Shown piece after piece: positions 19,490 to 25,542 of a DNA stretch of 64,000 nucleotides. Position 1 is the first letter of the stretch. Every line of letters starts with the position of its first letter. The notes beneath the pieces were generated by a model. The model was not told where the DNA came from. It did not search any database and saw nothing but the letters and a program-made list of their open reading frames with translations. The translations under genes and the position numbers were made by a program. The DNA is from an uncultured delta proteobacterium. GTDB lineage: Bacteria > Desulfobacterota > Binatia > UBA9968. The stretch spans positions 320,001-384,000 of the forward strand of contig CAVUZH010000016.1 in the NCBI GenBank assembly GCA_963745835.1. The letters run 5' to 3'.

Positions 19490-20881
19490 TTAAACTCTGG
19501 CAAACCGCCGGCAAAAATCGGCTTTCAGCTCTTCGTCAGATATCGTTTTGCTAAGAGACTCGACCAGCTCTGTAAGCCGCGCCTGTGGAAATTCTTCCAT
19601 GGATTCCCCAAAGGCCCTCACCTGATCACGGATAATCAGGGATGCGATGCTCCCCATCACATTGCTGAGCTCGCTGAACTCAGTGATCATACGGTCGAAA
19701 GCGTATTGCGAGACGGTTTGCGAAGCGGCTTCCGATACCATGGGCATGACTGTCGCAGCCTGAAATTGGACGGCAGTGGATTTCTCTTCGCCGTTTTTTG
19801 ATTGTTCGCGTTCGACAGGTGTTCCAGGAGCTTGGGCCTGAGTATCAGTCAAAGCTTGTGCTTCACTGTGGTTCCACCCGTTTCTGTGGGGGTCCAACTC
19901 GGTGTTTAGAACGAAGGCCTGGCCATTTCGCTCTTGGCCGAGTTCTTTGATGGGCGATTCCGAAGCTAGCAATCTACTGTTCTCAACAAGTCCGCCGACG
20001 ATCTGCTCTGTCTGGCTAAGTTGGGCTTGCAGCGCTGCGATCTTCATCTTGAGACCGTCAATGACCTGCTCGGCATGTTGGGCCTTGCTCGACGCCACTT
20101 CTTTTGCGTGCCCGTTCGCCAACTGCAAATGCGTTACCTGATCTATCATGGCATCCAGTTTTGATTTCAAATCGGTTACTTCGGATTCTCGAGTCTCGAG
20201 AGCTTCTTCTTTCTTCTTCACTGTGCTCTGTAAATCGCGAATTTCGACGCTAAGATTTTCTTCCAGCTTTTGGCTGGCAACGTCTTTCTGATGTATGGTT
20301 TGTTCCGTCTCTCTAAGTCTAACCTCCAGCGCGGCAATGTTTGTCTTGAGACCGTCGATAACCTGCTCGGCACGTTGCGCCTCACTCGCCGAGTCTGCTT
20401 TTGCGTGTTCGATCGCCGATTCCAAATGGCTTACCTGTACGGTCATGACATCTATTTTTGACTTGAGAACGTTCATCTCGGATTCTCGAGTCTCGAGAGC
20501 TTCTTCTTTCTTCTTCACCGCGCTTTGTAAATCGCGGATTTCGCCGCTAAGATTTTCTTCCATTTTTTGGCTGCCAGCCTCTTTTCTACGGAGAGTGTCC
20601 TCGGTCTCTCGAAGCTTAGTCTCCAGCATGGTGATATTTGCTTTAAGACCTTCAATGACCTGCTCCGCATGTTGCGCCTCACGCGCCACCACAGCTTGGT
20701 CGTCGCTAACTGCCGCTTTCAAACTACCGATTCGGTCGACTAAGAGTTTCTCAAGCTCCTGTATTGCATCATTCAAACTGCTGTCACTATCTTTTACCCG
20801 CGCGGAAATCATGAGGTGCGGTTTCCGGCGATGAAGAGTCCCCTGCACTACGCCTCTGACTGATTGCATTACTTTGGTCAT
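19490..20881 (-). CDS. Coiled-coil protein with ~99 aa internal repeats and a helical C-terminal domain
   Basis: 463 aa; AQ(H/R)AEQVI(E/D)GLK three times; EIRDLQS.VKKKEEALETRESE twice at 297 bp spacing; GGAGG SD. Confidence 0.8.
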   Translation of the reverse strand: MTKVMQSVRGVVQGTLHRRKPHLMISARVKDSDSSLNDAIQELEKLLVDRIGSLKAAVSDDQAVVAREAQHAEQVIEGLKANITMLETKLRETEDTLRRKEAGSQKMEENLSGEIRDLQSAVKKKEEALETRESEMNVLKSKIDVMTVQVSHLESAIEHAKADSASEAQRAEQVIDGLKTNIAALEVRLRETEQTIHQKDVASQKLEENLSVEIRDLQSTVKKKEEALETRESEVTDLKSKLDAMIDQVTHLQLANGHAKEVASSKAQHAEQVIDGLKMKIAALQAQLSQTEQIVGGLVENSRLLASESPIKELGQERNGQAFVLNTELDPHRNGWNHSEAQALTDTQAQAPGTPVEREQSKNGEEKSTAVQFQAATVMPMVSEAASQTVSQYAFDRMITEFSELSNVMGSIASLIIRDQVRAFGESMEEFPQARLTELVESLSKTISDEELKADFCRRFARV

Positions 20882-22486: not shown

Positions 22487-22865
22487 TAACATGGCGTATC
22501 CTCTCGCCAACTATACCCGTGCGGACCAGCCCATAAGGAGACCGCTGCGCCAGTGGAGTGCCGGGCAAACCGTCTCTCTTTCAGCCTCGCAATACGTTCT
22601 TACCGCATCCGTTCCGGTGTAAATCCGAGTATGCGGAGAGCTGCATCCCAATCTCGCCCGTTTAGCCAAAGCCCTTCTACATAACGGGGCGAAGATAGAT
22701 GCCGCGACCTCAGGTGCGGCTAAACTCAGCGCCCGGCGAGATCGACGCCTCATCCCCTGGCGCACCCTGTACGGCGTTCGGAAAGCGCGTTCAAATACTT
22801 GTCGCAACACTATCCAGCATATTTTCCTGGAGGTAGGTTCGATAACGGGAGCCGAAGGAATCGTA

Positions 22866-23300
22866 ATGGAAATACTTACTCCGCAAAGCATCGGCGGCGA
22901 GAGTCGGGACCACAGCGGGACTACAAATCCGGCTCTCAAGGCGGCTGTTACCAACGGCGTGCTTAAGCTTATCAAGCGCGACATCAACAGCAGCGCGGAT
23001 GCCCGACGTTGGCGCGACATCGTTCTCAACCTTAAGCAGCGTGTTGGCTAAGAGAAGTTCAAGCGCGAGTCGATGCGCGTGAAAATCGTCGCTATCGCTA
23101 ATCTAACGCTCTCACTCGAAAGGGAGACGGAAGGTGGTATCGAAGACACGCACGGTAAGCTCCTACGAAAAGCTGATTATGATCGAAACGTCCACCCGCA
23201 CACACTGCTATATAGGGAAGGAAACGTTGAACGAACGATACACATCATCGGCCAGATCTCGTCACTGTTGAAGTCGATCGGCATCAACGATGAAAAATAG
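22866..23300 (+). pseudogene. Hypothetical gene interrupted by an in-frame TAA (23049-23051)
   Basis: ORFs 22866-23051 and 23073-23300 are in the same frame, separated only by one TAA and 7 sense codons. Confidence 0.4.
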
Positions 23301-23471
23301 CTGGACGCTGCTGGACAATTTCGCGTGCTATGTCGACGCATTCAAAAAAGAGTGCCCCTATGATCAACCCACGAAAAACGTGCAGAGTTTGCAACCATCG
23401 CAGCCGCAGAGGTGGGGCTCAGTTTCTAATTTGTGATTAAATTATTTCTCCTTCAAAAGGAGTTCTGCAGC

Positions 23472-23600
23472 GGCTTGAACTGAAGCGTCGTATAGTTCAA
23501 TGCTGGATGTATTCAGCACACGTGCCCCCGCTGTAATGGTTACGTTGCCATCGTCTTGCGAGAGCCAGAGCGCACTGCCTTTACAGGCGGTCAATGGGTG
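23472..23600 (+). pseudogene. Remnant of a small CxxC protein gene
   Basis: Reads RLELKRRIVQ / IQHTCPRCNGYVAIVLREPER / LQAVNG across frameshifts. Confidence 0.4.
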
Positions 23601-23663
23601 CATTTACACTTTGCGGAGCAACGTTATTGACTTAAAGTTTTTGAATTGTTAGGTCATACCCCT

Positions 23664-23981
23664 GTGAAGCGGTCGATCCTGTCTACTTTGTTGCTTTTCT
23701 TTGTCGCGCTGGGTCTCACCGGTACGCAAGTATTCGCGATCGTGATCACGGCGGCACACGCGGCCGAGCAGGAAGCTGCTGAGGAACGAGAAGAACAGGT
23801 TTCCAGGAAGTCCTCCCGGCGACCTCAGACTCGTGGTAAAAAACTTCAGCCGCCTTCCGTCAATCCCTCGATATTTTTCGGCTTAACATCGAACGCACGG
23901 ACCGATCTGCGTTTGCGCTTTTTTCTTCAGTCGAACCTCCCCCCGGGTAATCTCCGCCTTCTTCAGGTCTATCGCGTTTAA
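23664..23981 (+). CDS. Small exported or membrane-anchored leader protein upstream of terC
   Basis: GTG start; KRS plus hydrophobic stretch (signal-like), charged linker, C-terminus ...LRLLQVYRV-stop. Confidence 0.65.
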   Translation: MKRSILSTLLLFFVALGLTGTQVFAIVITAAHAAEQEAAEEREEQVSRKSSRRPQTRGKKLQPPSVNPSIFFGLTSNARTDLRLRFFLQSNLPPGNLRLLQVYRV

Positions 23982-23982
23982 G

Positions 23983-24057
23983 ATTTCCGTTCTCGTAATG
24001 TTTTTGCTCGCGTGACGTGTGCGCGGTGGTTTCGCTTGCAAATAGGAGAATGGAAAT
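23983..24057 (+). promoter_or_regulatory. SD-sequestering RNA hairpin between the leader and terC
   Basis: ATTTCCGTTCTC (23983-23994) pairs with GAGAATGGAAAT (24046-24057), 12 bp with one G-U pair; inner TTTGC/GCAAA; covers the AGGAG SD. Confidence 0.65.
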
Positions 24058-24059
24058 TT

Positions 24060-25211
24060 ATGGAATCAGAACGCTTATTTCTTTGGATTGCTTTTAACGT
24101 TTTTGTCTTGGGGATGCTCGCCCTCGATCTCGGGGTCTTTCACCGCAAGGCTCACACAGTCTCAATTAAGGAAGCCTCCATCTGGAGCGTGGTATGGATC
24201 ACGCTGGCGATGGCGTTCAATCTCGGCATCTACTTCGCTTGGGGGCAGGAAACGGCGCTTGAATTTTTGACCGGCTACGTGATCGAGAAGTCACTCAGCG
24301 TCGACAACTTGTTCGTTTTCCTAATGGTTTTCCAATATTTCAATACTCCGAGCGAGTACCAGCACCGCGTACTTTTTTGGGGCATTCTCGGGGCCTTGAT
24401 TCTGCGCGCCATTTTCATAGCCACAGGCTCCGCCCTGCTAGCCAACTTTCATTGGATGGGTTACGTCTTCGGCGCGTTCTTGGTCATCACCGGGATCAAG
24501 ATGTATCTTCAGGGGGGCGAGAAGATCGAGCCCGAGAAAAATCCTGTGGTTAGGCTTTTCGAGCGCTGGGTACCGATAAGCAGAAGTTATGATGGTCAGA
24601 AATTTTTTGTCCGGCGCGACGGCAAGACTCACGCAACGCTCTTAATGCTCGTGCTCCTCGTCGTTGAAACCACCGACGTGATTTTCGCGGTCGACTCGAT
24701 TCCGGCCATTTTTGCGATCACTCAGGATCCGTTTATTGTTTACACGTCGAACGTTTTTGCGATTCTCGGGCTGCGCGCGCTGTATTTCATGCTTGCGGGA
24801 GTCATGGAAATGTTCACCTATCTCAAAGTCGGGCTATCGGCGGTGCTGTGCTTTGTCGGCGCCAAGATGATGCTCGTCGACATCTATAAAATTCCGATCG
24901 GCGCTTCACTCTCGGTCATCGGCGGCGTGTTGCTCTTGTCGATTCTCGCGTCGTGGGCGTTTCAGCCCAAAAAGGCCGGCGTGCAATCGCACAAGCCCGA
25001 CGGCGCTCCGCGCTCGAGCCCATCACGCACGAGCGGTTCCGTCAACCCGGCAGTGATCGGTTGGATAGCATTGTTTTTAGTCACGGCGTATTTGATTCTG
25101 GCGACCATGGGACTCCATCGCCGGTGGTTGGACGAAAGAAGAATCGATCATCGTAACGGATTGGTCGAGAGTAACCCCGCGGACGCGAAATGGCCGCATG
25201 GAAGGAATTAG
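24060..25211 (+). CDS. TerC/Alx family membrane protein
   Basis: EKSLSVDNLFVF, QHRVLFWG, ETTDVIFAVDSIPA, TSNVFAILGLRALYF. Confidence 0.93.
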   Translation: MESERLFLWIAFNVFVLGMLALDLGVFHRKAHTVSIKEASIWSVVWITLAMAFNLGIYFAWGQETALEFLTGYVIEKSLSVDNLFVFLMVFQYFNTPSEYQHRVLFWGILGALILRAIFIATGSALLANFHWMGYVFGAFLVITGIKMYLQGGEKIEPEKNPVVRLFERWVPISRSYDGQKFFVRRDGKTHATLLMLVLLVVETTDVIFAVDSIPAIFAITQDPFIVYTSNVFAILGLRALYFMLAGVMEMFTYLKVGLSAVLCFVGAKMMLVDIYKIPIGASLSVIGGVLLLSILASWAFQPKKAGVQSHKPDGAPRSSPSRTSGSVNPAVIGWIALFLVTAYLILATMGLHRRWLDERRIDHRNGLVESNPADAKWPHGRN

Positions 25212-25542
25212 AAGCGATTACGATCGGCACAGATCCGAGTCTCGCTCAGGCGTGAGCGCAGTTTGCGTTATTCGAAGGCGGACTTTGCCCAGCTTCTGTT
25301 TCTTGCCGATGCTGCCCCGAGTCCGAAGACCTGTGCAGGTCCTGTGTCGTATATGACGGCAGAGCCATATCACACTGCCGCCATTAATCCTGATGAACGC
25401 GCTCTGTCGGCCTTTTATCCGTACAGCAGAAACAACAAGCCCCAAGAACTCCCATACGTGGCAGCGCTCAGGGCTTGGTTTTGTTGGCCTTTGACGGTGC
25501 GTTTAGACTCTAGTGTACTGTAACAGCAGATTAACGTCCGTG

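Follow-up and report, generated by a model that had tools for sequence, protein, structure and literature searches.

A conserved small reading frame with an export-type N-terminus ahead of terC in uncultured Binatia: a candidate translational switch with an RNA clamp centred on its stop codon

We have analysed a 64,000-nt stretch of DNA (the window) from an uncultured delta proteobacterium (assembly GCA_963745835.1, contig CAVUZH010000016.1, positions 320,001 to 384,000) and, within it, a small open reading frame (ORF), here called the leader, that lies upstream of a terC/alx gene. A gap of 78 nt separates the end of the leader ORF from the terC start. The downstream gene was assigned to TerC through its matches to Pfam PF03741 (180.8 bits, 2.6e-53, cutoff 27.8) and to NCBIfam TIGR03718 'R_switched_Alx' (435 bits, 1.6e-130, cutoff 246.4). 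A longer leader reading is possible from TTG 23646 (111 aa); the homologues begin at M/V-K-R-S, hence the choice of GTG 23664. A preliminary description, made from the letters of the window, had reported a 105-aa ORF ending in LRLLQVYRV-stop ahead of terC, and both the sequence and the ORF list confirmed it. The same description had proposed that homologues of an arrest peptide would share a conserved C-terminal motif, a variable linker and a covarying stem over terC's Shine-Dalgarno (SD) sequence. The features of the leader, of its RNA and of terC are the following:

23664..23981, forward strand: leader ORF, with a GTG start and 105 codons plus TAA (ORF list and homologues)
23676..23765, forward strand: N-terminal uncharged hydrophobic segment, residues 5-34, after K2 and R3 (hydropathy and AlphaFold2)
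23766..23843, forward strand: acidic block EQEAAEEREEQ, residues 35-45, then basic block RKSSRRPQTRGKK, residues 48-60 (27-sequence alignment)
23958..23978, forward strand: C-terminal motif L-L-Q-V-Y-R-V, residues 99-105; the family consensus is L-L-Q-V-(F/Y/L)-R-(I/V)-stop
23974..23979, forward strand: 5' strand of helix P1, made of the last leader codons and pairing with terC codons 4-5 (24069-24074) in the minimum free energy structure; weak in the window
23979..23981, forward strand: leader stop codon TAA (stop census over 17 sequences)
23983..23994, forward strand: 5' arm (anti-SD) of helix P2, starting one base past the leader stop (fold and repeat search)
24046..24057, forward strand: 3' arm of helix P2, covering the terC SD AGGAGA (24044-24049) and ending 2 nt before ATG 24060
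24060..25211, forward strand: terC/alx gene, with an ATG start and 383 codons plus stop (PF03741 and TIGR03718 matches)

We have searched for relatives of the leader at the protein level. A word-indexed search yielded 26 homologues among 39 candidates (53-98% identity, 98-109 aa), an exhaustive search of 1.84 billion cluster representatives yielded 17 representatives at E <= 0.001, and a profile search (6378 candidates) yielded 36 clusters. Among the homologues found there was no Pfam domain and no name beyond 'hypothetical protein', and the sole named organism was Candidatus Binatia. The window leader itself had neither a Pfam nor an NCBIfam match.

A TerC protein scan, with one genome per species, returned 58 related terC loci, and the upstream ORFs were inspected at 57 of them (L057, a partial match, was left out; L008 had no upstream DNA). 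A leader ORF of 103-110 codons was present upstream of terC at 16 of the 57 inspected loci (L001-L007, L009, L010, L012-L015, L022, L055 and L058), in addition to the window, with a distance of 72-99 nt from the leader stop to the terC ATG. When the window leader was used in tblastn, only L058 was clear; the diverged leaders were located by position and ORF inspection and had the same plan. The DNA evidence presented below comes from these 17 related sequences (16 loci and the window), which represent about a dozen lineages and derive from metagenome-assembled genomes (MAGs). The titles of the 17 records are mostly Binatia or 'delta proteobacterium', with a few other labels that are possibly binning errors. 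In a maximum-likelihood tree holding 42 of the 59 TerC sequences (L010, L058 and 15 others were omitted as near-duplicates, as fragments or for the size limit), the 15 leader-linked terC genes formed one clade with support of 98/94, to which the leaderless L011 was sister. The leader and terC form a two-gene unit, and the leader is almost certainly a real translated gene.

Three of the leader-terC pairs (L002, L022 and L055) come from MAGs that carry the labels Verrucomicrobiia, Limnocylindrales and Chloroflexota, respectively, and their terC nests within the otherwise Binatia / 'delta proteobacterium' clade; L002 differs very little from the Binatia locus L001. These could be either mis-binned contigs or recent transfers of the gene pair. 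A neighbouring, Syntrophobacter-like terC clade has a different upstream ORF that overlaps the terC start by a few bases (L016 3663-4004, L017 3660-4004, L018 3636-4004 and L019 76-495). Its product is a small hydrophobic protein with several membrane passes (about 113-140 codons), and this alternative partner is coupled by overlap, not by a hairpin. Finally, in a Hyphomicrobiales MAG (L053, 3668-3907), an ORF of ~76 aa with a classic signal-peptide-like N-terminus stops 93 nt upstream of a distant terC (47% identity); this ORF is possibly an independent counterpart of the leader.

The leader N-terminus was of export type throughout the family. In all 62 members considered, K/R residues were followed by an uncharged run of 13-33 residues, and the maximum Kyte-Doolittle value over an 11-residue window was 2.3-3.5. 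With the family alignment as input, AlphaFold2 placed a confident helix only at residues 1-20 (predicted local distance difference test, pLDDT, of 84-90, with 49-65 for the rest). The mean pLDDT was 60.8 and the predicted template modelling score 0.23, and no globular fold was predicted. Judged heuristically from hydrophobicity and the AlphaFold helix, this region is probably a signal peptide or an N-in signal anchor, compatible with the N-terminal signal or transmembrane segment proposed in the preliminary description. A comparison with solved structures, including ribosome-bound arrest peptides, gave a best E-value of 1.6, which is chance level.

Downstream of the hydrophobic segment, residues E40, E41, R42, Q45 and K59 were invariant in the 27-sequence alignment, and the block was recognisable in the majority of the distant members. 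The region had been described as a low-complexity linker, which holds in part: a truly variable stretch is present, but it is preceded by a conserved acidic EEREEQ (residues 40-45) and by the basic block. The ratio of nonsynonymous to synonymous change per site (pN/pS), computed from nine locus pairs, was 0.55 in the hydrophobic N-terminus, 0.44 in the acidic and basic blocks and 0.73 in the linker, so that the linker is near-neutral, as had been anticipated. Despite this, the hydrophobic N-terminus and the C-terminus are kept at a fixed distance of ~89 residues. The leader measures 105.6 +/- 2.8 aa, and the interval from the hydrophobic window to the C-terminus is 85-94 residues (standard deviation 1.9, 62 sequences).

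The expected C-terminal motif was also conserved. R-(I/V) closes 63 of the 66 distinct family proteins and Q-(I/V) two, the remaining one being an aberrant fusion; the Arg at position -2 is written by five codons (CGC, CGG, CGA, CGT and AGA). Counting from the C-terminus over all pairs of 14 non-redundant loci, with pS at 0.70-0.81 throughout, pN/pS went from 0.84 (codons -25..-13) to 0.80 (-12..-8), 0.56 (-7..-4) and 0.22 (-3..-1), the lowest value being that of the last three codons. Six clusters (P0007, P0011, P0014, P0016, P0017 and P0019) do not have L-Q-V-Y and end in ...NLRLRI, with the L-R-(I/V) end kept, and thereby offer a natural deletion series on which residues matter. The stop codon was TAG in 14 of the 17 sequences, TAA in three and TGA in none, compared with a crude background from long ORFs of roughly one third each. 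Since the stop is always TAG or TAA, release factor 1 (RF1) can always read it.

The overall constraint on the leader was weaker than that on its neighbour. The leader dN/dS (nonsynonymous to synonymous substitution rate) was 0.24-0.62 in 8 of 12 computable pairs; for terC, ten pairs gave 0.04-0.09. The terC value of the window-L058 pair was unusable because the L058 contig ends after 50 codons. In three close pairs, with 10-20 substitutions each, the leader values were scattered (0.41, 1.10 and 3.03). The leaders of L007 and L010 differ by one synonymous and nine nonsynonymous changes (dS 0.013), with a terC dS of 0.238; recombination of the leader region or fast evolution of the peptide could produce this pattern, the numbers being too small to favour either.

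We have then considered the RNA between the two genes. Helix P2 corresponds to the stem of the preliminary description, which begins one base past the leader stop and masks the terC SD, and its arms were as described there. In the window it comprises 12 bp with one G-U and extends to 15 nt at 87% complementarity (23983-23997 / 24043-24057). Paired with the terC initiation region, the post-stop segment gives a duplex of -20.6 kcal/mol, against -7.0 +/- 2.0 for shuffled sequences (0/500 as good), and the P2 partner is the best one in the entire leader transcript (0/348 windows better). In all 17 loci the post-stop sequence is pyrimidine-rich and able to pair with the terC SD region, the 5' arm beginning 1-8 nt past the stop and its partner ending 0-10 nt before the AUG. 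The P2 duplex surpassed its 500 shuffles (fraction <= 0.016) in 12 of the 17 loci, and it was the best window of the transcript in seven.

Covariation was assessed with a covariance model that was built from eight sequences and used to realign all 17. In this model-fitted alignment 79.2% of the cells pair, and both-sided changes occur in 10 of the 12 pairs (21 cells). The covariation score of P2 was 0.313, compared with 0.209 +/- 0.023 after shuffling (0/500 reached it), and it dropped to <= 0.173 when the partners were slid by 1-3 columns. This agrees with the covarying SD-blocking stem that had been foreseen. RNAalifold on a plain MAFFT alignment missed P2, because the arms are out of register there, and returned only eight invariant-type pairs near P1. 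Cross-pairing of arms between loci was uninformative, since every 3' arm carries an SD and every 5' arm an anti-SD.

The fold of the whole 121-nt region was only modestly unusual (-34.6 kcal/mol, z = -1.91, 9/200 shuffles as good). Taken alone, that value would suit a chance ORF next to a chance hairpin, or an element acting purely as RNA, such as a riboswitch or an attenuator. We consider such an origin exceedingly improbable, given that the ORF is conserved in frame over 66 distinct proteins and 17 DNA loci, that no Rfam family reached threshold, and that no terminator-like site follows the leader. The intergenic interior varies in length (72-99 nt) and in sequence, which argues against a conserved aptamer. 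A yybP-ykoY riboswitch had no match in 22500-25500 even at E <= 10, and none at gathering score in the 58 loci, where the Rfam scan found only tRNAs and one FMN element elsewhere.

Three further candidates were rejected. A match to the Na+ riboswitch aptamer RF03071 at 24459-24526, inside terC, reached 17.6 bits (E = 1.8), well short of the gathering score of 40.5, and was attributed to chance. An attenuator or terminator was discarded, no terminator-like site being present between leader and terC. As to stop readthrough or a leader-TerC fusion, the two ORFs share a frame in the window, with only the TAA between them, but just 7 of the 17 loci have a gap divisible by three, as by chance.

The consequence of pairing for terC initiation was estimated as the cost of opening the terC start (-14..+3). 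In the window this cost was 14.3 kcal/mol natively and 8.2 +/- 2.2 kcal/mol when the segment comprising the leader end and post-stop sequence was shuffled (0/100 as high). With a ribosome footprint reaching stop+13, it fell to 4.2 kcal/mol. In 12 of the 17 native loci the cost was 10-20 kcal/mol, and with the footprint to stop+13 it was 3.0-8.8 kcal/mol. The native cost was reached by at most 2 of 100 leader-end shuffles in 11 loci; L058 (0.06), L004 (0.14) and L022 (0.13), with costs of 10.8-11.7 kcal/mol, did not pass this shuffle test. The 17 leader loci had a median of 14.4 kcal/mol, compared with 6.4 kcal/mol for 39 leaderless terC loci, whose start codons were approximated (Mann-Whitney p about 9e-7, ignoring relatedness). 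By these computations, the terC start is sequestered by an RNA clamp centred on the leader stop, and a ribosome located there relieves the clamp.

The SD arm also contains a second copy of ATGGAA (24050-24065), 10 nt upstream of the true ATGGAA of terC. The upstream ATG is out of frame in the window; it is in frame in L006, L007 and L010, where it would add four codons, and in L009 a stop follows after three codons.

The clamp has a second helix, P1, in which generally the last about 15 nt of the leader and its stop pair with terC +1..+21 (codons 2-5). In 13 of the 17 loci, including L003-L005, the P1 duplex, computed with the last 18 leader nt, was better than 95% or more of 500 shuffles; it fell below that level in the window (0.096), L058 (0.248), L022 and L055. 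Either P1 or P2 was significant in 15 of the 17 loci. RNAalifold detected no compensatory changes in P1. The 5' strands of P1 and P2 flank the leader stop codon, and only a ribosome sited at the stop covers both at once.

The reverse complement of terC codons 2-4 (GAT-TCG-GAA) is TTC-CGA-ATC, that is, Phe-Arg-Ile. Thus, it had to be tested whether the C-terminal motif is a mere shadow of RNA pairing, in a peptide with no role of its own whose ORF only brings ribosomes to the clamp. Such an explanation would accommodate the frequency of P1, the visible reverse-complement relation between the leader end and the terC codons, and a final residue restricted to I or V, as expected of wobble-tolerant pairing. 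It would also accommodate the terC side of the helix: codons 2-5 (24063-24074; M-[DE]-S-[ED]-R) have a pS of 0.40, against 0.70-0.77 deeper in the gene, and their residues are not conserved outside the leader clade. This depressed synonymous change indicates that terC appears adapted to pair with the leader end. The leader side behaves differently. Its last three codons have a pS of 0.81 and a pN of 0.18, so their synonymous sites are unconstrained. The AGA of L015 keeps the Arg yet breaks the pair, and the third base of the Arg codon (C or T) mismatches in 11 of the 17 sequences. L-L-Q-V (-7..-4) lies outside the P1 core and is conserved with varied Leu codons (CTT, CTC, CTA and TTG), and in the window and L058 the motif is intact with a weak P1. 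The pairing-only explanation is therefore very improbable, although the restriction of the last residue to I or V implies a contribution of RNA constraint, which probably shapes the final leader codon. We conclude that the RNA and the peptide levels both act and that the peptide is selected in its own right.

Upstream of the leader, a further conserved element was found:

23627..23655, forward strand: promoter-like block, with TTGACT (23627-23632), a 17-nt spacer ending in TGT, and TAGGTC (23650-23655) (conservation)

The block ends 8 nt upstream of the leader GTG in the window and 8-11 nt upstream over the 17 leader sequences, in all of which ATTGACTT...AATTGnTAnC is kept; the DNA farther upstream is unalignable. 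A consensus promoter scan did not call the block, its -10 rule being unmet. Its conservation and position point to a possible promoter function. No SD was visible between the block and the leader start codon, and the leader mRNA may accordingly be leaderless or nearly so. Taken together, this suggests a self-contained transcript of two genes with little or no 5' untranslated sequence.

In our view these data are best explained by the following mechanism. The level of terC expression would be set by the frequency and the duration of ribosome occupancy at the last leader codons. The heptapeptide L-L-Q-V-(F/Y/L)-R-(I/V), lying in the tunnel next to the peptidyl-transferase centre, would slow termination, resulting in a programmed pause or arrest, and the RF1-readable stop (TAG or TAA, never TGA) would act together with it. 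The export signal, ~89 residues away, would engage Sec, which would pull on the chain and end the pause. Impaired export would then lead to more TerC being made.

The steps of this mechanism differ in how firmly they can be held. That terC depends on leader translation through the clamp is, in our view, likely. A pause or arrest at the leader end that depends on the motif is suggested by the conservation pattern, with the case standing at about even or slightly better. For the overall reading of the leader as a translational switch of the monitoring-substrate type, the comparisons leave the case evenly poised. Release of the putative arrest by export would be a more tentative step, and a somewhat doubtful one. 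The most detailed version has the nascent chain arresting at the RF1-read stop through L-L-Q-V-(F/Y/L)-R-(I/V) and being released by pulling that depends on Sec and on the proton motive force. In it, the acidic and then the basic block would sit in or near the translocon at the time of arrest and act as an electrophoretic force sensor. We regard this version as unlikely. Working from sequence comparisons, we infer that the ribosome may arrest, that export may release it and that a metal might be sensed, and nothing specific in those comparisons pointed to metal sensing.

A published screen for monitoring substrates (PMC10987492) looked for an N-terminal signal or transmembrane segment, a conserved C-terminus and a spacer of more than 30 aa. 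The leader has all three. Of the four features that can be compared with that screen, the downstream gene is the one that differs: the leader is small and unannotated, but the gene that follows it is terC. Sequestration of the SD is supported computationally by P2 in 12 of the 17 loci and by P1 or P2 in 15.

A number of observations weigh against this switch. P2 was not significant in five of the 17 loci (L003, L004, L005, L022 and L055), and in L022 and L055 neither helix was. The covariation was counted on a structure-fitted alignment of 17 related sequences, and the bias against TGA likewise rests on sequences that are not independent. The last three leader codons overlap P1, with the final residue limited to I or V as G-U-tolerant pairing with terC codon 2 allows. 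Six family members are short of four motif residues, and Gln replaces Arg at -2 in one locus and two proteins. The motif is unlike any known arrest motif, containing neither RAPP/RAGP nor proline. The signal-peptide call derives from hydrophobicity and the AlphaFold helix, not from a dedicated predictor. Finally, the constraint on the acidic and basic blocks fits a functional mature peptide as well as it fits a sensor.

The last point leads to a different explanation, in which the leader is a functional small exported or membrane-anchored protein and the clamp ties terC to it stoichiometrically, as plain unregulated coupling with no programmed pause. The peptide could be a TerC accessory or a metal-handling peptide, and a periplasmic PDZ protease, or TerC, could bind its hydrophobic-x-hydrophobic C-terminus as a ligand. 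The clamp by itself would account for the coupling, the two genes are inherited together within one clade, the EEREEQ acidic block and the basic block are kept and not obviously needed by a pure sensor, and the motif is unlike those of known arrest peptides. Other properties fit this explanation poorly. The overall constraint on the leader is weak by comparison with terC, and no fold is predicted past the N-terminal helix. Constraint climbs steeply to the final residues and ends exactly at the stop, and length is fixed while the linker sequence is near-neutral. The gap of 72-99 nt is far from the usual overlapping or adjacent arrangement of stoichiometric partners. As weak evidence, there was no leader-TerC fusion among the longer proteins. 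Overall, we consider unregulated coupling the strongest of the alternatives to the switch and possible, though rather unlikely.

A third possibility retains the arrest and changes its trigger. The motif would block termination only in the presence of a ribosome-bound small molecule or ion, as in TnaC or SpeFL, with Mn2+ or a pH-related signal as candidates, and the export signal would be secondary. TerC/Alx is controlled elsewhere by Mn-sensing yybP-ykoY riboswitches (cf. TIGR03718 'R_switched_Alx'). With this riboswitch undetected here and at the 58 related loci, some other input would be expected. The position of the conserved C-terminus, ending at an RF1-read stop, would fit as well. Nonetheless, nothing in the sequence points to a ligand, and the fixed distance of ~89 residues to the hydrophobic N-terminus would be left unexplained. 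The ligand-sensing arrest peptides known so far are short and have no export signals, which also counts against this possibility, and we hold it to be improbable.

The genes flanking the leader-terC pair encode a CMD-family protein, a SnoaL/CaMKII-AD-like protein, a cupin and a coiled-coil protein, with no functional link seen. In the same window, positions 19490-20881 (reverse strand) encode a 463-aa protein of long internal repeats whose only matches were sub-threshold coiled-coil ones (crescentin rod, intermediate filament and tropomyosin). It is possibly a bacterial cytoskeletal or coiled-coil repeat protein.

Compared with known systems, the leader has the general plan of SecM-secA, MifM-yidC2 and VemP-secDF2: a short ORF whose product begins with a signal for export or insertion, continues with a spacer of poor conservation and closes with a conserved C-terminal segment. 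The gene that directly follows is related to membrane biogenesis, and its SD lies in a stem that a ribosome at the ORF end would melt. The SecM layout is that described in PMC7897499, and the narrow distribution of leader spacer lengths recalls MifM and not SecM or VemP (PMC10987492). There are also clear differences. The target is terC, not a sec gene or yidC. Neither RAGP/RAPP nor any proline is present: the R/Q/H-A/G-P-P/G motif was found neither in the last nine residues of the 66 distinct leaders nor in the alignments, in accordance with the preliminary description. The leader motif ends at the stop, so any stall would take place at termination and not during elongation, and a two-helix clamp flanks the stop. 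Lastly, arrest is putative for the leader.

TnaC and SpeFL are arrest peptides of the termination stage, in which the nascent chain blocks release at the stop codon and thereby controls a downstream gene. PepNL acts in the same manner (PMC11890864). All three differ from the leader in being short cytosolic peptides without export signals, responsive to small molecules and with unrelated motifs. Stalling with a stop codon in the A site has also been reported for signal-bearing peptides from upstream ORFs that have a motif at the extreme C-terminus (Fujiwara et al. 2024, PMC10987492). These peptides share with the leader the export signal and the position of the conserved motif. They differ in having motifs that end in Pro or Lys, in lying upstream of secA or secDF, in coming from Bacteroidota and Firmicutes, and in that their stalling was shown in vitro. 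Arrest peptides of the RAPP/RGPP class precede non-Sec genes, including Cu-related and TonB-dependent receptor genes (Fujiwara et al. 2025, PMC12992588). As proposed for the leader, they are peptides with a localisation signal that control a gene outside the Sec/YidC set, metal-related genes included. Their defining motif, RAPP/RGPP, is absent from the leader. Signal-bearing arrest peptides ahead of such genes are thus already known.

Two other modes of control are related to the one proposed here. Control of alx/terC by the Mn2+-responsive yybP-ykoY is likewise post-transcriptional and exerted by an element of the 5' region, which is an RNA aptamer and not a translated ORF. In classical hairpin-mediated coupling, translation of the upstream cistron also melts a structure that masks the downstream SD, but the leader is distinguished by its gap of 72-99 nt, the stop-centred structure, the C-terminus conserved at the protein level and the export signal. 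We found no link between TerC and an arrest peptide in the literature searched, and the term 'TerC' was absent from the main texts of the surveys PMC7897499, PMC10987492 and PMC12992588 (term search, supplements not covered). The claim that the system is undescribed was thereby upheld within that literature. Probably new here are the motif, the target gene and the two-helix clamp centred on the stop, together with the putative stall at the termination stage.

The system belongs to an uncultured lineage, mostly Candidatus Binatia by record titles. If the leader caused no stalling, the locus would still be a clean case of long-range, hairpin-mediated coupling with a conserved small exported peptide. 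If the proposed switch is true, the arrest-peptide field gains a motif free of proline and of any RAPP-like core, a stall that probably falls at termination, and a clamp of two helices centred on the stop codon. As regards TerC, work in Bacillus has tied it to the Sec translocon and to the Mn loading of exported enzymes, and that work reports that TerC proteins co-purify with SecY and SecDF and proposes that loss of TerC jams translocons (PMC10550928). Given this association, a secretion-monitor logic for terC is plausible and would make biological sense. A secretion-monitor leader, if true, would constitute an independent evolutionary argument for the Sec link. In the most detailed version given above, TerC would respond by direct feedback to how the secretion machinery is faring, and there would be independent evidence from outside Bacillus for TerC as a homeostatically controlled component of the secretosome. 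A secretion-monitor leader would also offer a handle on what induces TerC, whether export stress, membrane potential or pH, or Mn.

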